A DNA stretch of 64,000 nucleotides from Mobula hypostoma (Eukaryota), in contig NC_086097.1 of assembly GCF_963921235.1 (NCBI RefSeq), positions 131,566,001-131,630,000 on the forward strand, given 5' to 3'. The notes beneath the pieces are model-generated. The model saw only the letters and a list, made by a program, of their open reading frames with translations, searched no databases and was not told the origin of the DNA. Position numbers and translations under genes: made by a program. Positions 9,222 through 56,289 of this stretch are shown here, in pieces; the first letter of the stretch is position 1; each line of letters starts with the position of its first letter.

Positions 9222-9983
9222 GTGTTGTTTGTTTCAAAACCAGATGGTTATAGGGAAGTAATTGTTGCTGAGGCAGACAAGTGGGTCACGGTTAGGAGGG
9301 GGAAGGGGAAAAGGCAGGTGATGGGGAGTACCCCGGTGGCTGTGCCCCTTAACAACAGGTACTCCTGTTTGAGTACTGTTGGGGGGGACAGCTTACCCGG
9401 GGGAAGCGACAGTGGCCCTGCCTCCGGCACAGAGTCTGGCCCTGTAGCTCAGAAGGGTAGGGCAAGGAAGAGGAGGGCAGTTGTGATAGGGGACTCGATA
9501 GTAAGTGGGTCAGATAGGCGATTCTGTGGACGCAGTCCAGAGACCCGGATGGTAGTTTGCCTCCCTGGTGCCAGGGTCCGGGATATTTCTGATCGTGTCC
9601 AAGATATCCTGAAGTGGGAGGGTGAGGAGCCAGAGGTCGTGGTACATATAGGTACCAATGACATAGGTAGGAAAAGGGATGAGGTCCTGAAAGGAGAATA
9701 TAGGGGGCTAGGAAGGGAGTTGAGAAAAAGGACCGCAAAGGTAGTAATCTCGGGATTACTGCCTGTGCCACGCGACAGTGAGAGTAGGAATGCGATGAGG
9801 TGGAGGATAAATGCGTGGCTGAGGGATTGGAGCAGGGGGCAGGGATTCAAGTTTTTGGATCATTGGGACCTCTATTGGTGCAGGCGTGACCTGTACAAAA
9901 AGGACGGGTTACACTTGAATCCTAGGGGGACCAATATCCTGGCAGGGAGATTAGCGGGGGCTACTGAGGTGACTTTAAACTAG
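9222..9983 (+). CDS. CR1 ORF1p, SGNH/GDSL esterase-like domain (5'-partial; the first ~17 codons are probably flanking DNA)
   Basis: SGNH blocks VIGDSIV, CLPGA, HIGTND and DGLH; ends ACT TTA AAC TAG. Confidence 0.92.
   Translation: MLFVSKPDGYREVIVAEADKWVTVRRGKGKRQVMGSTPVAVPLNNRYSCLSTVGGDSLPGGSDSGPASGTESGPVAQKGRARKRRAVVIGDSIVSGSDRRFCGRSPETRMVVCLPGARVRDISDRVQDILKWEGEEPEVVVHIGTNDIGRKRDEVLKGEYRGLGRELRKRTAKVVISGLLPVPRDSESRNAMRWRINAWLRDWSRGQGFKFLDHWDLYWCRRDLYKKDGLHLNPRGTNILAGRLAGATEVTLN
9974..9980 (+). promoter_or_regulatory. Candidate -1 ribosomal frameshift slippery site T TTA AAC
   Basis: X_XXY_YYZ heptamer in ORF1 phase immediately before the ORF1 TAG; its -1 frame is ORF2. Confidence 0.6.
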
Positions 9984-9988
9984 AATGG

Positions 9989-12900
9989 TTGGGGGGTGGG
10001 AATCAAATTAAAGAGGCTAGGCGTGAGGAGGTTAGTTCACGACAGAGGGATGGGAACCAGTGCAGAGAGACAGAAGGGTGTAAAGTGAGCGTAGAAGCAA
10101 AAAGTACAAAGGAGAAAAGTAAAAGTGGCAGGCCGACAAATCCAGGGCAAGCATTAAAAAGGGCTAAGAGAGTTGTAAAAGAGCGCCTGAAGGCTTTATG
10201 TGTCAATGCAAGGAGCATTCGTAATAAGGTGGATGGATTCAAAGTGCAGATTATTATTAATGATTATGATATAGTTGGGATCACAGAGACATGGCTCCAG
10301 GGTGACCAGGGATGGGAGCTCAACGTTCAGGGATATTCAATATTCAGGAGGGATAGACATGAAGGAAGGGGAGATGGGGTGGCGTTGCTGGTTAAAAAAG
10401 AGATTAACGCAATAGAAAGGAAGGACATAAGCCGGGAAGATGTGGAATCGATATGGGTAGAGCTGCGTAACACTAAGGGGCAGAAGACGCTGGTGGGAGT
10501 TGTGTACAGGCCACCTAACAGTAGTAGTGAGGTCGGAGATGGTATTAAACAGGAAATTAGAAATGTGTGCAATAAAGGAACAGCAGTTATAATGGGTGAC
10601 TTCAATCTACATGTAGACTGGGTGAACCAAATTGGTAAAGGTGCTGAGGAAGAGGATTTCTTGGAATGTATGCGGGATGGTTTTTTGAACCAACATGTCG
10701 AGGAACCAACTAGACAGCAGGCTATTCTGGACTGGGTTTTGAGCAATGAGGAAGGGTTAATTAGCGATCTTGTCGTGAGAGGCCCCTTGGGTAAGAGTGA
10801 CCATAATATGGTGGAATTCTTCATTAAGATGGAGAGTGACATAGTTAATTCAGAAACAAAGGTTCTGAACTTAAAGAGGGGTAACTTTGAAGGTATGAGA
10901 CGTGAATTAGCTAAGATAGACTGGCAAATGACACTTAAAGGATTGACGGTGGATATGCAATGGCTAGCATTTAAAGGTTGCATGGATGAACTACAACAAT
11001 TGTTCATCCCAGTTTGGCAAAAGAATAAATCAAGGAAGATAGTGCACCCGTGGCTGACAAGAGAAATTAGGGATAGTATCAATTCCAAAGAAGTAGCATA
11101 CAAATTAGCCAGAGAAAGTGGCTCACCTGAGGACTGGGAGAAATTCAGAGTTCAGCAGAGGAGGACAAAGGGCTTAATTAGGAAGGGGAAAAAAGATTAT
11201 GAGAGAAAACTGGCAGAGAACATAAAAACGGACTGTAAAAGCTTTTATAGATATGTAAAAAGGAAAAGACTGATAAAGACAAATGTAGGTCCCCTGCAGA
11301 CAGAAACAGGTGAATTGATTATGGGGAGCAAGGACATGGCAGACCAATTGAATAATTACTTTGGTTCTGTCTTCACTAAGGAGGACATAAATAATCTTCC
11401 AGAAATAGTAAGGGACAGAGGGTCCAGTGAGATGGAGGAACTGAGTGAAATACATGTTAGTAGGGAAGTGGTGTTAGGTAAATTGAAGGGATTGAAGGCA
11501 GATAAATCCCCAGGGCCAGATGGTCTGCATCCCAGAGTGCTTAAGGAAGTAGCCCAAGAAATAGTGGATGCATTAGTGATAATCTTTCAAAACTCGTTAG
11601 ATTCTGGACTAGTTCCTGAGGATTGGAGGGTGGCTAATGTAACCCCACTTTTTAAAAAAGGAGGGAGAGAGAAACCGGGGAATTATAGGCCGGTTAGCCT
11701 AACGTCGGTGGTGGGGAAACTGCTGGAGTCAGTTATCAAGGATGTGATAACAGCACATTTGGAAAGCGGTGAAATGATCGGACAAAGTCAGCATGGATTT
11801 GTGAAAGGAAAATCGTGTCTGACAAATCTCATAGATTTTTTTGAGGATGTAACTAGTAGAGTGGATAGGGGAGAACCAGTGGATGTGGTATATTTGGATT
11901 TTCAAAAGGCTTTTGACAAGGTCCCACACAGGAGATTAGTGTGCAAACTTAAAGCACACGGTATTGGGGGTAAGGTATTGGTGTGGGTGGAGAATTGGTT
12001 AGCAGACAGGAAGCAAAGAGTGGGAATAAACGGGACCTTTTCAGAATGGCAGGCGGTGACTAGTGGGGTACCGCAAGGCTCAGTGCTGGGACCCCAGTTG
12101 TTTACAATATATATTAATGACTTGGATGAGGGAATTAAATGCAGCATCTCCAAGTTTGCGGATGACACGAAGCTGGGTGGCAGTGTTAGCAGTGAGGAGG
12201 ATGCTAGGAGGATGCAGGGTGACTTGGATAGGTTGGGTGAGTGGGCAAACTCATGGCAGATGCAATTTAATGTGGATAAATGTGAAGTTATCCACTTTGG
12301 TGGCAAAAATAGGAAAACAGATTATTATCTGAATGGTGGCCGATTAGGAAAAGGGGAGGTGCAACGGGACCTGGGTGTCATTATACACCAGTCATTGAAA
12401 GTGGGCATGCAGGTACAGCAGGCGGTGAAAAAGGCGAACGGTATGCTGGCATTTATAGCGAGAGGATTCGAGTACAGGAGCAGGGAGGTACTACTGCAGT
12501 TGTACAAGGCCTTGGTGAGACCACACCTGGAGTATTGTGTGCAGTTTTGGTCCCCTAATCTGAGGAAAGACATCTTTGCCATAGAGGGAGTACAAAGCAG
12601 GTTCACCAGATTGATTCCTGGGATGGCAGGTCTTTCATATGAAGAAAGACTGGATGAACTGGGCTTGTACTCGTTGGAATTTAGAAGATTGAGGGGGGAT
12701 CTGATTGAAACGTATAAGATTCTAAAGGGATTGGACAGGCTAGATGCGGGAAGATTGTTCCCGATGTTGGGGAGGTCCAGAACGAGGGGTCACAGTTTGA
12801 GGATAGAGGGGAAGCCTTTTAGGACCGAGATTAGGAAAAACTTCTTCACACAGAGGATGGTGAATCTGTGGAATTCTCTGCCACAGCAAACTGTTGAGGC

Positions 12901-12994
12901 CAGTTCATTGGCTATGTTTAAGAGGGAGTTAGATATGGACCTTGTGGCTACGGGGATCAGGGGGTATGGAGGGAAGGCTGGGGTGGGGTTCTGA
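9989..12994 (+). CDS. CR1 ORF2p: APE endonuclease plus reverse transcriptase; uninterrupted, with no AUG before 10592
   Basis: APE motifs CVNARS, GITETW, VYRPP, MGDFN and SDH; RT motifs KSPGPDG, YRPVSL, YLDFQKAFD, GVPQGSVLGP and FADD. The frame is open from 9968. Confidence 0.97.
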   Translation: MGGGNQIKEARREEVSSRQRDGNQCRETEGCKVSVEAKSTKEKSKSGRPTNPGQALKRAKRVVKERLKALCVNARSIRNKVDGFKVQIIINDYDIVGITETWLQGDQGWELNVQGYSIFRRDRHEGRGDGVALLVKKEINAIERKDISREDVESIWVELRNTKGQKTLVGVVYRPPNSSSEVGDGIKQEIRNVCNKGTAVIMGDFNLHVDWVNQIGKGAEEEDFLECMRDGFLNQHVEEPTRQQAILDWVLSNEEGLISDLVVRGPLGKSDHNMVEFFIKMESDIVNSETKVLNLKRGNFEGMRRELAKIDWQMTLKGLTVDMQWLAFKGCMDELQQLFIPVWQKNKSRKIVHPWLTREIRDSINSKEVAYKLARESGSPEDWEKFRVQQRRTKGLIRKGKKDYERKLAENIKTDCKSFYRYVKRKRLIKTNVGPLQTETGELIMGSKDMADQLNNYFGSVFTKEDINNLPEIVRDRGSSEMEELSEIHVSREVVLGKLKGLKADKSPGPDGLHPRVLKEVAQEIVDALVIIFQNSLDSGLVPEDWRVANVTPLFKKGGREKPGNYRPVSLTSVVGKLLESVIKDVITAHLESGEMIGQSQHGFVKGKSCLTNLIDFFEDVTSRVDRGEPVDVVYLDFQKAFDKVPHRRLVCKLKAHGIGGKVLVWVENWLADRKQRVGINGTFSEWQAVTSGVPQGSVLGPQLFTIYINDLDEGIKCSISKFADDTKLGGSVSSEEDARRMQGDLDRLGEWANSWQMQFNVDKCEVIHFGGKNRKTDYYLNGGRLGKGEVQRDLGVIIHQSLKVGMQVQQAVKKANGMLAFIARGFEYRSREVLLQLYKALVRPHLEYCVQFWSPNLRKDIFAIEGVQSRFTRLIPGMAGLSYEERLDELGLYSLEFRRLRGDLIETYKILKGLDRLDAGRLFPMLGRSRTRGHSLRIEGKPFRTEIRKNFFTQRMVNLWNSLPQQTVEASSLAMFKRELDMDLVATGIRGYGGKAGVGF

Positions 12995-13027
12995 GTTGGA
13001 TGATCAGCCATGATCATAATAAATGGC

Positions 13028-13093
13028 GGTGCAGGCTCGAAGGGCCGAATGGCCTACTCCTGCACCTATTTTCTATGTTTCTATGTTTCTATG
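13028..13093 (+). other. CR1 3' stem-loop and 8-bp microsatellite tail
   Basis: GGTGCAGG (13028-13035) pairs with CCTGCACC (13059-13066) around GGCC-GAAT-GGCC, followed by TTTCTATG x3. The same structure is in copies 2 and 3. Confidence 0.85.
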
Positions 13094-13724
13094 AACCTAG
13101 TCATGCAGGACTTCTGACTTCTGCGTCTCTGATCTGATGGTTGAAGTGTGAAGAGGACATGATCTGGATGGTGGGATCCTCGATGATAGGTGCCACTTTC
13201 TTGAGGCAATGGCTCCCATAGATTCTGTCAATGGCGAGAAAGGCTGTATTTTTTATGAACTGGGCTGTTCCCCTAGTCGATAGCCTCTTGCATTCCTATG
13301 TGTGGGAATTGCTATACCAGGCTGTGATGCAACCAGTCTGGGAAAGCAGGCTTGGTGCTCTGGGAATAATCTTGATATCCAGAGAAATGACAAGAGTCTG
13401 TCTTCACACTGCCAACTGGACTTTCAAGATATTTCACAGACATTTGTAGTTCCTCAGGTTTGTATATTGCCTTAGGCAAACATACACAGAACGTAAGTGG
13501 CATGAATTTCTTTTATTATTGCAGTAGCACAGTACATTACAAATATGACATAAACCTAAATTAACATAAGTTATGCAGAACATGCATTGCAAACAAAAAC
13601 ATAAAAACACTAATTCAAGTTGAGAGATAGAAAAAGAATATTATCCAAAGTCATGTTAGGGTTTTTTAGAACCTGAAGAAGAACCTGTTAAACCGTCAGT
13701 TGTGGGTCTTCAGGCTTCTGTATG

Positions 13725-15382
13725 CAGTGCCCTGCCTCCTACCCCTCTTCACAGTCCCCCACCCTGCTCTCATGACTATATCCCTTCCCCACACAAAACC
13801 ACCATGGTGGGCTTCACAGCTGAACAGGTGAGAAGACAGCTGAAACATCTCAACCCAAGCAAGGCTGCAGGACCGGATGGTGTCAGTACCAGGGTGCTCA
13901 AAGACTGTGCCCCTCAGTTATGTGGAGTACTTCGCCATGTATTCAACCTAAGCCTGAGGCTCTGGAGGGTTCCTGTACTGTGGAAGACATCCTGCCTCGT
14001 CCCTGTACTGAAGACGCCGCGCTCCAGCGGCCTCAATGGCTACAGACCGGTGGCATTGACCTCCCACATCATGAAGACCCTGGAGAGACTTGTTCTGGAG
14101 CTGCTCCGGCCTATGGTCAGGCCACACTTAGATCCCCTCCAGTTCGCCTACCAGCCCCGACTAGGAGTTGAGGATGCCATCGTCTACCTGCTGAACCGTG
14201 TCTACGCCCACCTGGACAAGCTAGCGAACACTGTGAGGGTTATGTTTTTTGACTTCTCCAGTGTCTTCAACACCATCCGCCCTGCTCTGCTGGGGGAGAA
14301 GCTGACAGCGATGCAGGTGGATGCTTTCCTGGTGTCATGGATTCTTGATTACCTGACTGGCAGACCACAATACGTGTGCTTGCAACACTGTGTGTCCGAC
14401 AGAGTGATCAGCAGCACTGGGGCTCCACAGGGTACTGTTTTGTCTCCCTTTCTCTTCACCATTTACACCTTGGACTTCAACTACTGCACAGAGTCTTGTC
14501 ATCTTCAGAAGTTTTCTGATGACTCTGCCATAGTTGGATACATCAGCAAGGGAGATGAGGCTGAGTACAGGGCTACGGTAGGAAACTTTGTCACATGGTG
14601 TGAGCAGAATTATCTGCAGCTTAATGTGAAAAAGACTAAGGAGCTGGTGGTAGACCTGAGGAGAGCCAAGGTACCGGTGACCCCTGTTTCCATCCAGGGG
14701 GTCAGTGTGGACATGGTGGAGGATTACAAATACCTGGGAATATGAATTGACAATAAACTGGACTGGTCAAAGAACACTGAGGCTGTCTACAAGGGTCAGA
14801 GCCGTCTCTATTTCCTGAGGAGACTGAGGTCCTTTAGCATCTGCCGGACGATGCTGAGGATGTTCTACGAGTCTGTGGTGGCCAGTGCTATCATGTTTGC
14901 TGTTGTGTGCTGGGACAGCAGGCTGAGGGTAGTAGACACCAACAGAATCAACAAACTCATCCGTAAGGCCAGTGATGTTGTGGGGATGGAACTGGACTCT
15001 CTGACGGTGGTGTCTGAAAAGAGGATGCTGTCTAAGTTGCATGCCATCTTGGTCAATGTCTCCCATCCACTACATAATGTACTGGGTGGGCACAGGAGTA
15101 CATTCAGCCAGAGACTCATTCCACCGAGATGCAGCACAGAGCGTCATAGGAAGTCATTCCTGCCTGTGGCCATCAAACTTTACAACTCCTCCCTTGGAGG
15201 GTCAGACACCCTGAGCCAATAGGCTGGTCCTGGACTTATTTCATAATTTACTGGCATAATTTACATATTACTATTTAACTATTTATGGTTCTATTACTAT
15301 TTATTATTTATGGTGCAACTGTAACGAAAACCAATTTCCCCCGGGATCAATAAAGTATGACTATGACTATGACTATGACTAT
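13725..15382 (+). mobile_element. Young 5'-truncated Rex1/Babar-type LINE; RT interrupted by one stop (TGA 14743-14745)
   Basis: KAAGPDG, YRPVALTS, FFDFSSVFNTI, GAPQGTVLSP and KFSDD. ORFs 13702-14745 and 14851-15222 share a frame. AATAAA plus a (TATGAC)n tail. Confidence 0.93.
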
Positions 15383-17397: not shown

Positions 17398-19458
17398 AAT
17401 CAAGGAAGGTAGTGCACCCGTGGCTGACAAGAGAAATTAGGGATAGTATCAATTCCAAAGAAGTAGCATACAAATTAGCCAGAGAAAGTGGCTCACCTGA
17501 GGACTGGGAGAAATTCAGAGTTCAGCAGAGGAGGACAAAGGGCTTAATTAGGAAGGGGAAAAAAGATTATGAGAGAAAACTGGCAGAGAACATAAAAACT
17601 GACTGTAAAAGCTTTTATAGATATGTAAAAAGGAAAAGACTGATAAAGACAAATGTAGGTCCCCTGCAGACAGAAACAGGTGAATTGATTATGGGGAGCA
17701 AGGACATGGCAGACCAATTGAATAATTACTTTGGTTCTGTCTTCACTAAGGAGGACATAAATAATCTTCCAGAAATAGTAAGGGACAGAGGGTCCAGTGA
17801 GATGGAGGAACTGAGCGAAATACATGTTAGTAGGGAAGTGGTGTTAGGTAAATTGAAGGGATTGAAGGCAGATAAATCCCCAGGGCCAGATGGTCTGCAT
17901 CCCAGAGTGCTTAAGGAAGTAGCCCAAGAAATAGTGGATGCATTAGTGATAATCTTTCAAAACTCGTTAGATTCTGGACTAGTTCCTGAGGATTGGAGGG
18001 TGGCTAATGTAACCCCACTTTTTAAAAAAGGAGGGAGAGAGAAACCGGGGAATTATAGGCCGGTTAGCCTAACGTCGGTGGTGGGGAAACTGCTGGAGTC
18101 AGTTATCAAGGATGTGATAACAGCACATTTGGAAAGCGGTGAAATGATCGGACAAAGTCAGCATGGATTTGTGAAAGGAAAATCATGTCTGACGAATCTC
18201 ATAGAATTTTTTGAGGATGTAACTAGTAGAGTGGATAGGGGAGAACCAGTGGATGTGGTATATTTGGATTTTCAAAAGGCTTTTGACAAGGTCCCACACA
18301 GGAGATTAGTGTGCAAACTTAAAGCACACGGTATTGGGGGTAAGGTATTGGTGTGGGTGGAGAATTGGTTAGCAGACAGGAAGCAAAGAGTGGGAATAAA
18401 CGGGACCTTTTCAGAATGGCAGGCGGTGACTAGTGGGGTACCGCAAGGCTCAGTGCTGGGACCCCAGTTGTTTACAATATATATTAATGACTTGGATGAG
18501 GGAATTAAATGCAGCATCTCCAAGTTTGCGGATGACATGAAGCTGGGTGGCAGTGTTAGCAGTGAGGAGGATGCTAAGAGGATGCAGGGTGACTTGGATA
18601 GGTTGGGTGAGTGGGCAAACTCGTGGCAGATGCAATTTAATGTGGATAAATGTGAAGTTATCCACTTTGGTGGCAAAAATAGGAAAACAGATTATTATCT
18701 GAATGGTGGCCGATTAGGAAAAGGGGAGGTGCAACGAGACCTGGGTGTCATTATACACCAGTCATTGAAAGTGGGCATGCAGGTACAACAGGCGGTGAAA
18801 AAGGCGAACGGTATGCTGGCATTTATAGCGAGAGGATTCGAGTACAGGAGCAGGGAGGTACTACTGCAGTTGTACAAGGCCTTGGTGAGACCACACCTGG
18901 AGTATTGTGTGCAGTTTTGGTCCCCTAATCTGAGGAAAGACATCTTTGCCATAGAGGGAGTACAAAGAAGGTTCACCAGATTGATTCCTGGGATGGCAGG
19001 TCTTTCATATGAAGAAAGACTGGATGAACTGGGCTTGTACTCGTTGGAATTTAGAAGATTGAGGGGGGATCTGATTGAAACGTATAAGATCCTAAAGGGA
19101 TTGGACAGGCTAGATGCGGGAAGATTGTTCCCGATGTTGGGGAGGTCCAGAACGAGGGGTCACAGTTTGAGGATAGAGGGGAAGCCTTTTAGGACCGAGA
19201 TTAGGAAAAACTTCTTCACACAGAGAGTGGTGAATCTGTGGAATTCTCTGCCACAGCAAACTGTTGAGGCCAGTTCATTAGCTATGTTTAAAAGGAAGTT
19301 AGATATGGCCCTTGTGGCTACAGGGGTCAGGGGGTATGGAGGGAAGGCTGGGTTCTGAGTTGGATGATCAGCCATGATCATAATAAATGGCGGTGCAGGC
19401 TCGAAGGGCCAAATGGCCTACTCCTGCACCTATTTTCTATGTTTCTATGTTTCTATGT
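17398..19458 (+). mobile_element. CR1 LINE copy 2, 5'-truncated
   Basis: Near-identical to copy 1 from about 11028 onward; GTTAC lies on both flanks (17393-17397 and 19457-19461). Confidence 0.97.
17412..19358 (+). CDS. CR1 ORF2 RT portion (5'-partial, uninterrupted)
   Basis: Same RT motifs as copy 1; no endonuclease domain. Confidence 0.9.
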   Translation: MHPWLTREIRDSINSKEVAYKLARESGSPEDWEKFRVQQRRTKGLIRKGKKDYERKLAENIKTDCKSFYRYVKRKRLIKTNVGPLQTETGELIMGSKDMADQLNNYFGSVFTKEDINNLPEIVRDRGSSEMEELSEIHVSREVVLGKLKGLKADKSPGPDGLHPRVLKEVAQEIVDALVIIFQNSLDSGLVPEDWRVANVTPLFKKGGREKPGNYRPVSLTSVVGKLLESVIKDVITAHLESGEMIGQSQHGFVKGKSCLTNLIEFFEDVTSRVDRGEPVDVVYLDFQKAFDKVPHRRLVCKLKAHGIGGKVLVWVENWLADRKQRVGINGTFSEWQAVTSGVPQGSVLGPQLFTIYINDLDEGIKCSISKFADDMKLGGSVSSEEDAKRMQGDLDRLGEWANSWQMQFNVDKCEVIHFGGKNRKTDYYLNGGRLGKGEVQRDLGVIIHQSLKVGMQVQQAVKKANGMLAFIARGFEYRSREVLLQLYKALVRPHLEYCVQFWSPNLRKDIFAIEGVQRRFTRLIPGMAGLSYEERLDELGLYSLEFRRLRGDLIETYKILKGLDRLDAGRLFPMLGRSRTRGHSLRIEGKPFRTEIRKNFFTQRVVNLWNSLPQQTVEASSLAMFKRKLDMALVATGVRGYGGKAGF

Positions 19459-40289: not shown

Positions 40290-41112
40290 TACCCAGTAAA
40301 TGCACTTGGAATATCATGGCCAATGCTGGGGATCATCTCTCAGGAAAGATGCACTGGCCATCAAGAGAGTCCTGAGGAGGTTCACAAAAATGAACGCAAG
40401 AATGAAAAGCTTAACCTGTGAGGAGACTTGATGTCTCTTGGCCTGTACTCAATGAAGTTAAGAAATTTGAGGGAGGGTGGGTCTCATTGAAACGTTTTAG
40501 ATATTGAAAGCACTTGTAGAGTGGACGTGGAGAGGATGTTTTTGTTAGTAGGAGAGTCTAAGATGCAAGGGGACAATAATAGAAAAATGTGGCAAATCAT
40601 GGACATGAGATATCCCGCAGATGCTGGAAATCCAAAGCAAAGAACACAAGATGCTGGAGGAACTCAGTAGGTCAGGCAGCATCCATGGAAGTGAATAAAC
40701 AGTTGATGTTTCAAGCTGAGACCCTTCTTCAGAACTGGAAAGGAAGGGGTAAAATGCCAGAACAAAAAGGTGGAGGGAGCAGAAGGAGGATAGCTAGAAA
40801 GTGATAGGTGAAACCAAGTGGGCAGGAAAGAAAAAGGGATGGAGAGGAAGGAATCTCTCCAGCCTAAAGTGGCATCACTTTAGAACTGAGATTAAGAGGT
40901 ATCTCCTCAGCAGTGTGGTGAATCTGTGGAATTTGTTGCCACAGAAGAATATGGAGGCCAAGACATTGAATGATGCAGAAGTGACAGGTTCTTGGCCAGT
41001 AAATGGTTAAAGGCTACAGAGAGAAGGCTGGAGAACGGAGTTAAGAAAAAAGTCAGCAGTGATTGAAAGGCAAATAGACTCAAGGGGCCAAATTCCCTAA
41101 TATTTCCGATCA
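40290..41112 (+). mobile_element. Old CR1 3' fragment with a nested minus-strand PLE repeat (about 40600-40860)
   Basis: LRKDALAIKRVLRRFTKM..FRTEIKRYLLSSVVNLWNLLPQ. Confidence 0.7.
40700..40737 (-). ncRNA. Minimal hammerhead motif (AUC site)
   Basis: CAGUU-CUGAAGA-A-GGGU(CUCA)GCUU-GAAAC-AUC^-AACUG, with a perfect helix I. Confidence 0.6.
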
Positions 41113-52392: not shown

Positions 52393-52698
52393 AAGCTCAC
52401 CTTCAGTGCATTAGATATATTCTTAAACTTATTGTTTAACACTTGAATCAAGCACATTCTGACTTCCAGAGAGAACCAAAACTAATATCATTGCATTTTC
52501 CAGGAGCACTCTGCACAACATTTAAGTTATATTTCATTACTTTTCTGAGAACCTTATCACTGCTATGGGCATTATTTCTGTTTGCAAAAAACCTTGCTAC
52601 ATAAAAACATAGAAACATAGAAAATAGGTGCAGGGGTAGGCCATTCGGCCCTTCGAGCCTGCACCGCCATTTATTATGATCATGGCTGATCATCCAAC

Positions 52699-55600
52699 TC
52701 AGAACCCTGCCCCAGCCTTCCCTCCATACCCCCTGATCCCCGTAGCCACAAGGGCCATATCTAACTCCCTCTTAAACATAGCCAATGAACTGGCCTCAAC
52801 TGTTTCCTGTGGCAGAGAATTCCACAGATTCACCACTCTCTGTGTAAAGAAGTTTTTCCTAATCTCGGTCCTAAAAGGCTTCCCCTTTATCCTCAAACTG
52901 TGACCCCTCGTTCTGGACTTCCCCAACATCGGGAACAATCTTCCTGCATCTAGCCTGTCCAATCCCTTTAGGATTTTATACGTTTCAATCAGATCCCCCC
53001 TCAATCTTCTAAATTCCAACGAGTACAAGCCCAGTTCATCCAGTCTTTCTTCATATGAAAGTCCTGCCATCCCAGGAATCAATCTGGTGAACCTTCTTTC
53101 TACTCCCTCTATGGCAAGGATGTCTTTCCTCAGATTAGGGGACCAAAACTGCACACAATACTCCAGGTGTGGTCTCACCAAGCCCTTGTACAACTGCAGT
53201 AGTACCTCCCTGCTCCTGTACTCGAATCCTCTCGCTATAAATGCCAGCATACCATTTGCCTTTTTCACCACCTGCTGTACCTGCATGCCCACTTTCAATG
53301 ACTGGTGTATAATGACACCCAAGTCTCGTTGCACCTCCCCTTTTCCTAATCGGCCACCATTCAGATAATAATCTGTTTTCCTATTTTTGCCGCCAAAGTG
53401 GATAACTTCACATTTATCCACATTAAATTGCATCTGCCATGAGTTTGCCCACTCACCCAACCTATCCAAGTCACTCTGCATCCTCTTAGCATCCTCCTCA
53501 CAGCTAACACTGCCACCCAGCTTCGTGTCATCCGCAAACTTGGAGATGCTGCATTTAATTCCCTCATCCAAGTCATTAATATATATTGTAAACAACTGGG
53601 GTCCCAGCACTGAGCCTTGCGGTACCCCACTAGTCACTGCCTGCCATTCTGAAAAGGTCCCGTTTATTCCCACTCTTTGCTTCCTGTCTGCTAACCAATT
53701 CTCTATCCACATCAATACCTTACCCCCAATACCTTGTGCTTCAAGTTTGCACACTAATCTCCTGTGTGGGACCTTGTCAAAAGCCTTTTGAAAATCCAAA
53801 TATACCACATCCACTGGTTCTCCCCTATCCACTCTACTAGTTACATCCTCAAAAAATTCTATGAGATTCGTCAGACATGATTTTCCTTTCACAAATCCAT
53901 GCTGACTTTGTCCGATGATTTCACCGCTTTCCAAATGTGCTGTTATAACATCTTTGATAACTGACTCCAGCAGTTTCCCCACCACCAACGTTAGGCTAAC
54001 CGGTCTATAATTCCCCGGTTTCTCTCTCCCTCCTTTTTTAAGAAGTGGGGTTACATTAGCCACCCTCCAATCCTCAGGAACTAGTCCAGAATCTAACGAG
54101 TTTTGAAAAATTATCACTAATGCATCCACTATTTCTTGGGCTACTTCCTTAAGCACTCTGGGATGCAGACCATCTGGCCCTGGGGATTTAGCTGCCTTTA
54201 ATCCCTTCAATTTACCTAACACCACTTCCCTACTAACATGTATTTCGCTCAGTTCCTCCATCTCACTGGACCCTCTGTCCCCTACTATTTCTGGAAGATT
54301 ATTTATGTCCTCATTAGTGAAGACAGAACCAAAGTAATTATTCAATTGGTCTGCCATGTCCTTGCTCCCCATAATCAATTCACCCGTTTCTGTCTGTATG
54401 GGATCTATATTTGTCTTTACCAGTCTTTTCCTTTTTACATATCTATAAAAGCTTTTACAGTCAGTTTTTATGTTCCCTGCCAGTTTTCTCTCATAATCTT
54501 TTTTCCCCTTCCTAATTAAGCCCTTTGTCCTCCTCTGCTGAACTCTGAATTTCTCCCAGTCCTCAGGTGAGCCACTTTTTCTGGCTAATTTGTATGCTTC
54601 TTCTTTGGAATTGATACTATCCCTAATTTCTCTTGTCAGCCACGGATGCACTACCTTCCTTGATTTATTCTTTTGCCAAACTGGGATGAACAATTGTTGT
54701 AGTTCATCCATGCAATCTTTAAATGCTTGCCATTGCATATCCACCGTCAATCCTTTAAGTGTCATTTGCCAGTCTATCTTAGCTAATTCACACCTCATAC
54801 CTTCAAAGTTACCCCTCTTTAAGTTCAGAACCTTTGTTTCTGAATTAACTATGTCATTCTCCATCTTAATGAAGAATTCCACCATATTATGGTCACTCTT
54901 ACCCAAGGGGCCTCTCACGACAAGATTGCTAATTAACCCTTCCTCATTGCTCAAAACCCAGTCCAGAATAGCCTGCTCTCTAGTTGGTTCCTCGACATGT
55001 TGGTTCAAAAAACCATCCCGCATACATTCCAAGAAATCCTCTTCCTCAGCACCTTTACCAATTTGGTTCACCCAATCTACATGTAGATTGAAGTCACCCA
55101 TTATAACTGCTGTTCCTTTATTGCACACATTTCTAATTTCCTGTTTAATACCATCTCCAACCTCACTACTACTGTTAGGTGGCCTGTACACAACTCCCAC
55201 CAGCGTTTTCTGCCCCTTAGTGTTACGCAGCTCTACCCATATCGATTCCACATCTTCCCGGCTTATGTCCTTCCTTTCTATTGCGTTAATCTCCTCTTTA
55301 ACCAGCAACGCCACCCCACCTGCTTTTCTTTCATGTCTATCCCTCCTGAATATTGAATATCCCTGAACGTTGAGTTCCCATCCTTGGTCACCCTGGAGCC
55401 ATGTCTCTGTGATCCCAACTATATCATAATCATTAATAATAACCTACACTTTCAATTCATCCACCTTGTTACGAATGCTCCTTGCATTGACACACAAAGC
55501 CTTCAGGCGCTCTTTTACAACTCTCTTAGCCCTTATACAATTATGTTGAAAAGTGATCCTGTTTAATGCTTGCCCTGGATTTGTCGGCCTGCCACTTTTA

Positions 55601-55746
55601 CTTTTCTCCTTACTACTTTTTGCTTCTACCCTCTCTTTACACCCCTCTGTCTCTCTGCACTCATTCCCATCCCCCTGTTGTGACCTAACCTTCTCTCGCC
55701 TAGCCTCTTTAATTTGATTCCCACCCCCAAACCATTCTAGTTTAAA
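52699..55746 (-). pseudogene. CR1 ORF2 with one premature stop (TAG at 55444-55446; CAG in copy 1)
   Basis: Manual translation from the heptamer reads FKLEWFGGGNQ..NKVDELKV*VIINDYD, then the same frame continues into the 871-aa ORF 52699-55314. Confidence 0.9.
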
Positions 55747-56289
55747 GTCACCTCAGTAGCCCTCGCTAATCTCCCTGCCAGGATATTGGTCCCCCTAGGA
55801 TTCAAGTGTAACCCGTCCTTTTTGTACAGGTCACGCCTGCGCCAAAAGAGGTCCCAATGATCCAAAAACTTGAATCCCTGCCCCCTGCTCCAATCCCTCA
55901 GCCACGCATTTATCCTCCACCTCATCGCATTCCTACTCTCACTGTCGCGTGGCACCGGCAGTAATCCCGAGATTACTACCTTTGCGGTCCTTTTTCTCAA
56001 CTCCCTTCCTAGCCCCCTATATTCTCCTTTCAGGACCTCATCCCTTTTCCTACCTATGTCATTGGTACCTATATGTACCACGGCCTCTGGCTCCTCACCC
56101 TCCCACTTCAGGATATCTTGAACACGATCAGAAATATCCCGGACCCTGACACCAGGGAGGCAAACTACCATCCGGGATTCTGGACTGCGTCCACAGAATC
56201 GCCTGTCTGACCCCCTTACTATCGAGTCCCCTATCACAACTGCCTTCCTCTTCCTTGCCCTACCCTTCTGAGCTACAGGGCCAGACTCT
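55737..56289 (-). CDS. CR1 ORF1p SGNH esterase domain (5'-partial)
   Basis: IGDSIV, HIGTND and DGLH; ends ..EVTLN*. Confidence 0.9.

Follow-up and report, generated by a model that had tools for sequence, protein, structure and literature searches.

A conserved U_UUA_AAC heptamer at the ORF1/ORF2 junction of esterase-type CR1 retrotransposons is a candidate site of programmed -1 frameshifting

Programmed -1 ribosomal frameshifting (PRF) in its canonical form needs a slippery heptamer, X_XXY_YYZ, set in the phase of the zero frame, together with a structure 5-9 nt downstream (PMC3542737). Among the described systems closest to the one reported here are the coronavirus U_UUA_AAC site and retroviral gag-pol frameshifting. 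We found the same heptamer and phase, and a downstream polymerase frame that lacks a start codon of its own, at the junction of the two open reading frames (ORF1 and ORF2) of a CR1 long interspersed element (LINE). The element lies in a 64,000-nt stretch of the genome of the ray Mobula hypostoma (contig NC_086097.1, positions 131,566,001 to 131,630,000; hereafter the window, numbered from its first letter). Unlike the coronavirus and gag-pol sites, the CR1 junction has no pseudoknot or stem-loop 5-9 nt downstream, its zero-frame stop codon follows at once, its frames overlap by just 16 nt, and its host element is a non-LTR retrotransposon. We put at roughly 0.77 the probability that CR1 LINEs with an esterase-encoding ORF1 make an ORF1-ORF2 fusion by programmed -1 frameshifting through tandem slippage; each step that concerns the behavior of ribosomes we infer from sequence.

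Reviews treat the translation of LINE ORF2 as an open question (PMC3894237, PMC5009743). Other two-ORF LINEs, such as SART1 with its UAAUG, L1 and the 2A-containing elements, share with CR1 the need for a small amount of ORF2 protein from one RNA (PMC3894237). HeT-A requires a frameshift within gag (PMC5009743), and TRE5-A has overlapping ORFs, as CR1 does (PMC5633606). A -1 shift joining ORF1 to ORF2 is not described in the passages on SART1, L1, 2A elements, HeT-A or TRE5-A, and in two papers on TRE5-A, one of them PMC5633606, the word frameshift was not found. Full-text literature searches, whose reach did not extend to the founding CR1 papers, the Repbase notes or supplements, returned no report of frameshifting in CR1, and a text search of PMC4120745 and PMC13343379 found neither "frameshift" nor "overlap". 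Frameshifting at this junction would be a known mechanism in a family for which we found no report of it, and its candidate stimulator would be atypical.

An initial sequence-only reading of the window had described ORF1 as ending in T_TTA_AAC followed by TAG. This arrangement is present at 9974-9983 in the phase of ORF1, and we also obtained the same coordinates for the TGA that closes the -1 frame (9965-9967) and for the 16-nt overlap that holds the heptamer; ORF2 occupies the -1 frame relative to ORF1. That reading also placed the first in-frame AUG of ORF2 at 10592, inside the endonuclease, which is correct, and numbered it codon 202, which is not: it is codon 209, or 207 counted from the heptamer. 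The G-rich tract that it located 6 nt downstream begins at 9987, and the AUG that it called out of frame, at 9985, lies in the third frame. As a start for ORF2 the latter was rejected, being in the wrong frame and not conserved. The heptamer alone is a common string. Seven canonical X_XXY_YYZ sites occur in 3.7 kb of the element, and TTTAAAC occurs 17 times in the window on both strands. Judged by the comparisons below, what goes beyond chance is the in-phase conservation of the heptamer at one place and not its presence.

Conservation was read among ray copies of the element. The heptamer is kept in all 30 near-identical loci and in the second copy within the window, which is little informative. 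To keep the choice independent of the junction, copies were selected through an esterase motif located 45 nt upstream (17,239 genome matches, against one for the control), and the first 100 were read; all of these lie in the initial 12 Mb of a single contig, and the rates given here rest on samples of 100 and 52 loci. TTTAAACTAR was present in 72 of the 100 copies, exactly at codon 26 in 61, and the remaining 28 showed point changes, indels or lost junctions. In the second sample, found with a distant protein, 33 of the 37 scorable copies among 52 loci kept the motif. Earlier clustering had over-split truncated copies, and dereplication at 85%, ungapped and outside the motif, gave 21 representatives, 17 of which match the heptamer exactly. 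Its first U comes from a codon that ends in U in 20 of these 21 and is variously GGT, AGT, GAT, ACT or AAT (Gly, Ser, Asp, Thr, Asn). Leucine at the junction is encoded by TTA in 18/18 cases versus 7/68 elsewhere in ORF1, and asparagine by AAC in 18/19 versus 17/35 elsewhere. The ORF1 stop codon is TAA in 11 representatives, TAG in 10 and TGA in none. These codon choices indicate that the junction heptamer is under strong selection at the nucleotide level, on its letters and not on the residues they encode. A ray subfamily with U_UCA_AAC, suspected from cluster 23, was rejected: 18 copies against 892 of the wild type correspond to the mutational background.

Similarly, proteins from beyond the rays point to the same junction. 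Of 67 scorable relatives from sharks, rays, coelacanth, Xenopus and a hummingbird, 56 have an ORF1 that ends in Leu-Asn. The same end occurs in 47 of 51 relatives from birds and turtles and in 80 of 96 relatives of invertebrate-type queries, which are mostly unnamed and include one from the tubeworm Ridgeia. The non-ray junctions available as DNA are host sequence within metagenome and bacterial assemblies, with hosts assigned by similarity only. Eight of nine bird-type junctions read TTTAAACTAG, in elements where TTA makes up only 3-7% of leucine codons (two bird-type ORF2 counted). The identical ten letters are found in 13/16 annelid-type loci and also in L078 and L086; L179, one of the annelid-type loci, has an ORF1 91% identical to the Ridgeia protein. 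The junction of L080 reads G_UUA_AAC-UAG, and its ORF1 is 55% identical to a sea-cucumber protein, so we class it as echinoderm-type; the G_UUA_AAC variant is listed for equine arteritis virus (PMC5009743). Outside the bird-type count, 28 of 37 metagenome loci comprise four invertebrate-type loci with a junction and others that end earlier or give no match. The comparison of CR1 junctions that had been proposed with the initial reading thus finds heptamer and phase kept in ray, bird-type, annelid-type and echinoderm-type elements, whose ORF2 proteins are only 38-45% identical across groups. Because horizontal transfer is possible, we claim no age for the junction.

With canonical vertebrate CR1 (ORF1 type IVB, CR1 subgroup 7; PMC4120745, PMC13343379) the window element shares an ORF1 with zinc finger/coiled coil and SGNH esterase, an ORF2 with AP endonuclease and reverse transcriptase (APE-RT), 5' truncation and a tail of short repeats. 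In PMC4120745, ORF1 type IVB was seen in no groups of the Jockey superfamily other than vertebrate ones. In contrast to that distribution, a CR1-like layout with an esterase ORF1, together with the junction, is present here in annelid-type and echinoderm-type DNA (L078, L080, L178-L193). Esterase ORF1 proteins of teleosts end in ..RTI and lack the motif; we take these to be L2-type elements.

Whether the frame beyond the heptamer behaves as coding sequence was read from the linker between the heptamer and the first endonuclease motif, which is 39 to 110 codons long among relatives. The -1 frame is closed 1-5 codons 5' of the heptamer in most of them. Of 93 scorable copies, 77 have the endonuclease motif in the -1 frame set by the heptamer, and the motif is in that frame at all seven distances seen in at least three copies; 35 of 128 junctions, having no detectable endonuclease motif, were left out. 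The 77 linkers contain 19 stop codons in the ORF2 frame, and the remaining frames contain 328 and 508 (the motif itself accounts for 77 of the 508). Since the ORF2 frame is nearly free of stops, the linker is likely translated. No in-frame AUG precedes the endonuclease in 58 of the 77 linkers, and no near-cognate start is shared within the first 14 linker codons; 7 of 20 representatives have no near-cognate codon there at all. A conserved AUG at the ORF1 stop, of the SART1 type, is absent from the window element and from the ray and annelid-type representatives. The ORF1 stop itself adjoins the motif in every junction seen as DNA.

A wider set of ORF1 proteins ends in other residues. In 150 distant representatives, 108 of them scorable, we counted 51 ends in LN, 12 in GN, three in KN, three in SN and two in EN. 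The residue before LN can be encoded by a codon with final U in 199 of 201 distinct tails, whereas 16% of neighboring residues cannot; the residue before GN is glutamine in 9 of 13 tails and is never one that excludes a final G. Ends in LN, QGN and SKN would fit U_UUA_AAC, G_GGA_AAC and A_AAA_AAC, which are three of the four most shift-prone heptamers (PMC5009743). In a tree of 77 hand-picked esterase domains, from which the junction residues were excluded, GN, KN and EN ends and one LN end fall into one clade (100/97). A separate clade (95/96) unites eight proteins in which Lys-Asn is internal. In all, ten proteins carry Lys-Asn at the junction position with no stop directly after it. Because the dipeptide is kept there without an adjacent stop, a shift site accounts for it better than a protein motif at the C-terminus would. 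Copies read from three contaminated bacterial assemblies were almost only of the LN type, as were the best own-genome matches that were read.

Several results weigh against frameshifting, among them those of the search for a stimulator. Local folding of three stretches of the window and of five relatives gave no significant structure (z-scores -0.7 and -1.2 in the window; range +0.4 to -1.8 among the relatives). In 21 elements we also looked for distant sequence that could pair with the G run, and the best duplexes fell at differing places with no shared position. The initial reading, too, had noted no clear pseudoknot. The window's subfamily could form a G-quadruplex, but this was rejected as an explanation: a quadruplex is part of the minimum-energy fold in only 2 of 20 representatives, and a loose two-tier motif occurs in nine of 20. 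A quadruplex or pseudoknot role of the G tract across families is not supported. Among features of canonical PRF, the heptamer in phase and a conserved open -1 frame were found and a downstream structure was not. For this reason we do not file the junction as canonical, structure-driven PRF. The other adverse results concern sequence and sampling. C_UUA_AAC was present in 42 copies against 892 of the wild type, two to four times the number for other single changes (18 and 10), in one ray context. All five in-frame bird-type copies have an in-frame AUG ahead of the endonuclease, as do the echinoderm-type element and 13 of 63 ray copies; in four of these bird-type copies the AUG stands 2 nt past the stop. 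Tandem slippage does not fit those echinoderm-type relatives that end in Ser-Asn. A search of viral contigs yielded no DNA for the GN- and KN-ending proteins, whose implied heptamers are read from protein only. The protein tails are related and not independent, so that their statistics overstate the support, and RTEX and Penelope-like elements, too, carry such esterases (PMC3905857).

One feature downstream of the heptamer does recur. A run of five or six G residues is present in 19 of 20 hand-picked intact representatives and starts at +11 in 16 of them, and the background of runs of at least five G is 0-2.5 per kb of ORF2. The arterivirus PRRSV, in which frameshifting involves nsp1beta and PCBP, has a structure-free linear motif 11 nt downstream of its shift site (PMC7939443), the same distance as the CR1 G run. 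The PRRSV motif is C-rich (PMC7939443) and that of CR1 G-rich, and a protein binding the CR1 motif is hypothetical; the likeness is one of spacing only and serves as a lead.

The frameshift and fusion proposed in the initial reading are supported by the conserved heptamer, its phase and the open -1 frame, and would proceed as follows. Most ribosomes would stop at the UAG and release the ORF1 protein. A minority, with the leucine and asparagine tRNAs on UUA AAC, would slip to UUU AAA and continue with the leucine codon at 9980, and the minor product would be an ORF1-ORF2 fusion with a predicted length of about 1,315 residues. More speculatively, a pause may come from the G5-6 run at +11 as a linear motif read by an RNA-binding protein at the mRNA entrance, and slow termination at the adjacent stop possibly helps it. 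The shift would set a low ratio of ORF2 to ORF1 and tie the enzyme to the ORF1 particle.

If this is correct, the working CR1 enzyme would be an ORF1-ORF2 fusion in which a membrane-binding esterase is joined to the reverse transcriptase, and annotations of ORF2 that start at a downstream AUG would be truncated. It would also add a conserved and apparently structure-free signal to a short list of frameshift signals in animal nuclear genomes, in a group that is the dominant retrotransposon in most vertebrate species (PMC13343379). A broader proposal, which we hold tentatively and at somewhat below even odds, is that a gag-pol-like fusion is bilaterian-wide, that a structure-free G5-6 stimulator is bound by a host or element protein, and that lineages swap U_UUA_AAC, G_GGA_AAC and A_AAA_AAC. 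On that proposal animal genomes would hold a very old, high-copy case of programmed frameshifting with a class of stimulator not described before.

The junction letters could instead be a restart signal, with ribosomes terminating at the UAG and reinitiating in the -1 frame, at a nearby AUG or without one, to give a free ORF2 protein. SART1 uses such a stop-start arrangement (PMC3708506), and the start of L1 ORF2 translation is considered not to depend on its AUG (PMC5009743); the constant adjacency of stop and motif and the lack of a frameshift-type structure agree with it as well. Its case is strongest for birds, given the AUG 2 nt past the stop in four of six representatives, and it may coexist with a shift, although the bird families that have this AUG still keep the rare TTA codon. 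Reinitiation leaves unexplained why X_XXY_YYZ is held in the exact phase of ORF1, why the implied swaps are among three known shift sites and why Lys-Asn persists without an adjacent stop. The 58 AUG-free linkers, with no near-cognate codon in common, also speak against it. UGGGA, the calicivirus-type restart motif, occurs in only some ray families, and there downstream of the stop. We consider reinitiation unlikely as the general explanation.

A second route to the same fusion is a stop-driven slip of a single tRNA, in which P-site tRNA-Asn moves from AAC to AAA during the ribosome's wait at UAG or UAA, so that A_AAC and the stop would form the essential core. The stop adjoins the motif in every case and is never UGA among the 21 representatives, proteins ending in Ser-Asn or Glu-Asn retain the A_AAC core only, and this slip, too, agrees with finding no downstream structure. 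UUU-A is nevertheless kept in rays, birds and annelid-type elements, where tandem slippage needs it and a single slip does not. U_UCA_AAC stays at the mutational background in the ray context (18 vs 892), and the internal Lys-Asn clade has no adjacent stop, which together make the single slip improbable. Lastly, the letters might reflect a C-terminal Leu-Asn, with or without an overlapping Phe-Lys-Leu, or a splice or other RNA signal, with ORF2 made from another start or from a spliced RNA. By the genetic code, Leu-Asn-stop and Phe-Lys-Leu in the other frame do force most of the motif, and the G run also encodes glycine. Yet Phe-Lys cannot be translated in most families, where the -1 frame is closed 1-5 codons upstream and holds no start codon there, and L080 reads Val-Lys-Leu. 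For splicing, the alternation of TAG and TAA leaves no conserved AG acceptor, and of the 15 joints displayed out of 36 (contigs from four runs of uncertain type, which cannot show absence or expression) none had GT..AG ends or spanned the heptamer. A protein constraint or splice signal is, in our judgment, very improbable, and tandem -1 slippage is the reading that we prefer.

The window element has the features of esterase-type CR1, namely an SGNH esterase in ORF1 (Pfam PF13472, E=1.5e-16), an APE-RT ORF2 (PF03372, PF14529 and PF00078) and a repeat tail. A 3' end of short tandem repeats without poly(A) is a feature of CR1 LINEs. Compared by pairwise identity only, its ORF2 matches bird-type ORF2 at 44-45% across about 950 residues and the LINE at 13660 at 29%. 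Relatives of its ORF1 occur in sharks, rays, chimaera, coelacanth, Xenopus, turtles and birds, and a devil-ray protein (95%) is the closest named one. Elsewhere in the genome the 39 best matches show 98-99% identity, a level that 29 other copies reach across the junction region, and by this measure the window copy is young. Sister copies run further upstream than 9270, and the first approximately 91 ORF1 codons are absent from the window copy, which, being 5'-truncated in this way, need not itself be expressed. The full-length sister ORF1 has 311 residues and, near its N-terminus, a CX2C-X16-CX2C motif that the window copy has lost; in esterase-type CR1 a zinc finger/leucine zipper precedes the esterase. 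Coordinates are collected in Table 1.

Table 1. Features of the CR1 element and its ORF1/ORF2 junction, in window coordinates
Feature	Position	Strand	Basis or remark
TGA closing the ORF2 (-1) frame, two codons 5' of the heptamer	9965..9967	+	sequence
Slippery heptamer U_UUA_AAC (TTTAAAC), in ORF1 phase	9974..9980	+	sequence and conservation
ORF1 stop TAG directly 3' of the heptamer	9981..9983	+	sequence; UAG or UAA among relatives
Out-of-frame AUG opening an 8-codon frame, subfamily-specific	9985..10011	+	third frame; sister subfamilies lack it
G6 run 11 nt after the heptamer, candidate unstructured stimulator	9991..9996	+	G tract itself from 9987
AUG-free linker of 77 codons in the -1 frame, heptamer to first endonuclease motif	9974..10204	+	sequence
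First in-frame ORF2 ATG, within the endonuclease domain (PF03372)	10592..10594	+	codon 209 from 9968
CR1 LINE copy, 5'-truncated, young subfamily	9270..13093	+	near-identical genomic copies; shared sequence begins at 9270
ORF1, 3' part, zinc-finger/coiled-coil start missing	9270..9983	+	SGNH esterase domain about 9483-9929
ORF2, intact, 1008 codons	9968..12994	+	AP endonuclease about 10253-10804; reverse transcriptase about 11663-12316
3' tail, three 8-base repeats (TTTCTATG), no poly(A)	13070..13093	+	sequence
Second copy of the same subfamily (96%)	52600..56289	-	heptamer identical at 55740-55746; one stop in ORF2

The linker varies within this one young subfamily. It has 77 codons in the window copy and L120 versus 86 in nine close sisters (compared: L100, L131, L135, L137, L139, L152), an in-frame difference of 27 nt (window 10160-10200). 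The G-rich motif found after the stop recurs as a decayed second copy at 10045-10058, 54 nt further into the linker. This suggests that the linker of this subfamily grew by duplication or recombination.

Further CR1 sequence occurs in the window: a 2-kb 5'-truncated copy of the element (98.6%) at 17398-19457 on the forward strand and, at 40879-40968, a short 73% match to its 3' part. A different LINE lies at 13660-15222 (+), with a reverse transcriptase 29% identical to the CR1 ORF2 and one stop at 14743-14745. Elsewhere, L007, L008 and L009 (G000:C45:45248313-45255781) are near-identical copies of the CR1 junction placed every 3,484 bases and truncated at one common base, that is, a tandem array of a truncated element. 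In L002, a 90-base tandem repeat (702-951) adjoins the 5' end of a truncated CR1.

Some records carry labels that are likely due to contamination. Animal CR1 is present in assemblies labeled as bacterial (L178-L193; a Metamycoplasmataceae assembly alone gave 24 matches), which is likely host contamination. CR1 proteins are likewise recorded under Pseudomonas, Proteus and Klebsiella, and a flatworm record is Xenopus-like (P0016, P0090, P0192, P0073). The CR1 ORF1 esterase is also annotated inside host isoforms (P0014, P0052, P0055, P0228, P0179), namely of ribosomal protein S24, TMEM204, a zinc-finger protein and a PF00656-domain protein, where exonization or mis-annotation is possible. Six annelid-type esterase ORF1 proteins (P0315, P0320, P0325, P0328, P0332, P0351) carry the SH3-family Pfam domains PF00018, PF14604 and PF07653 in a precomputed list.

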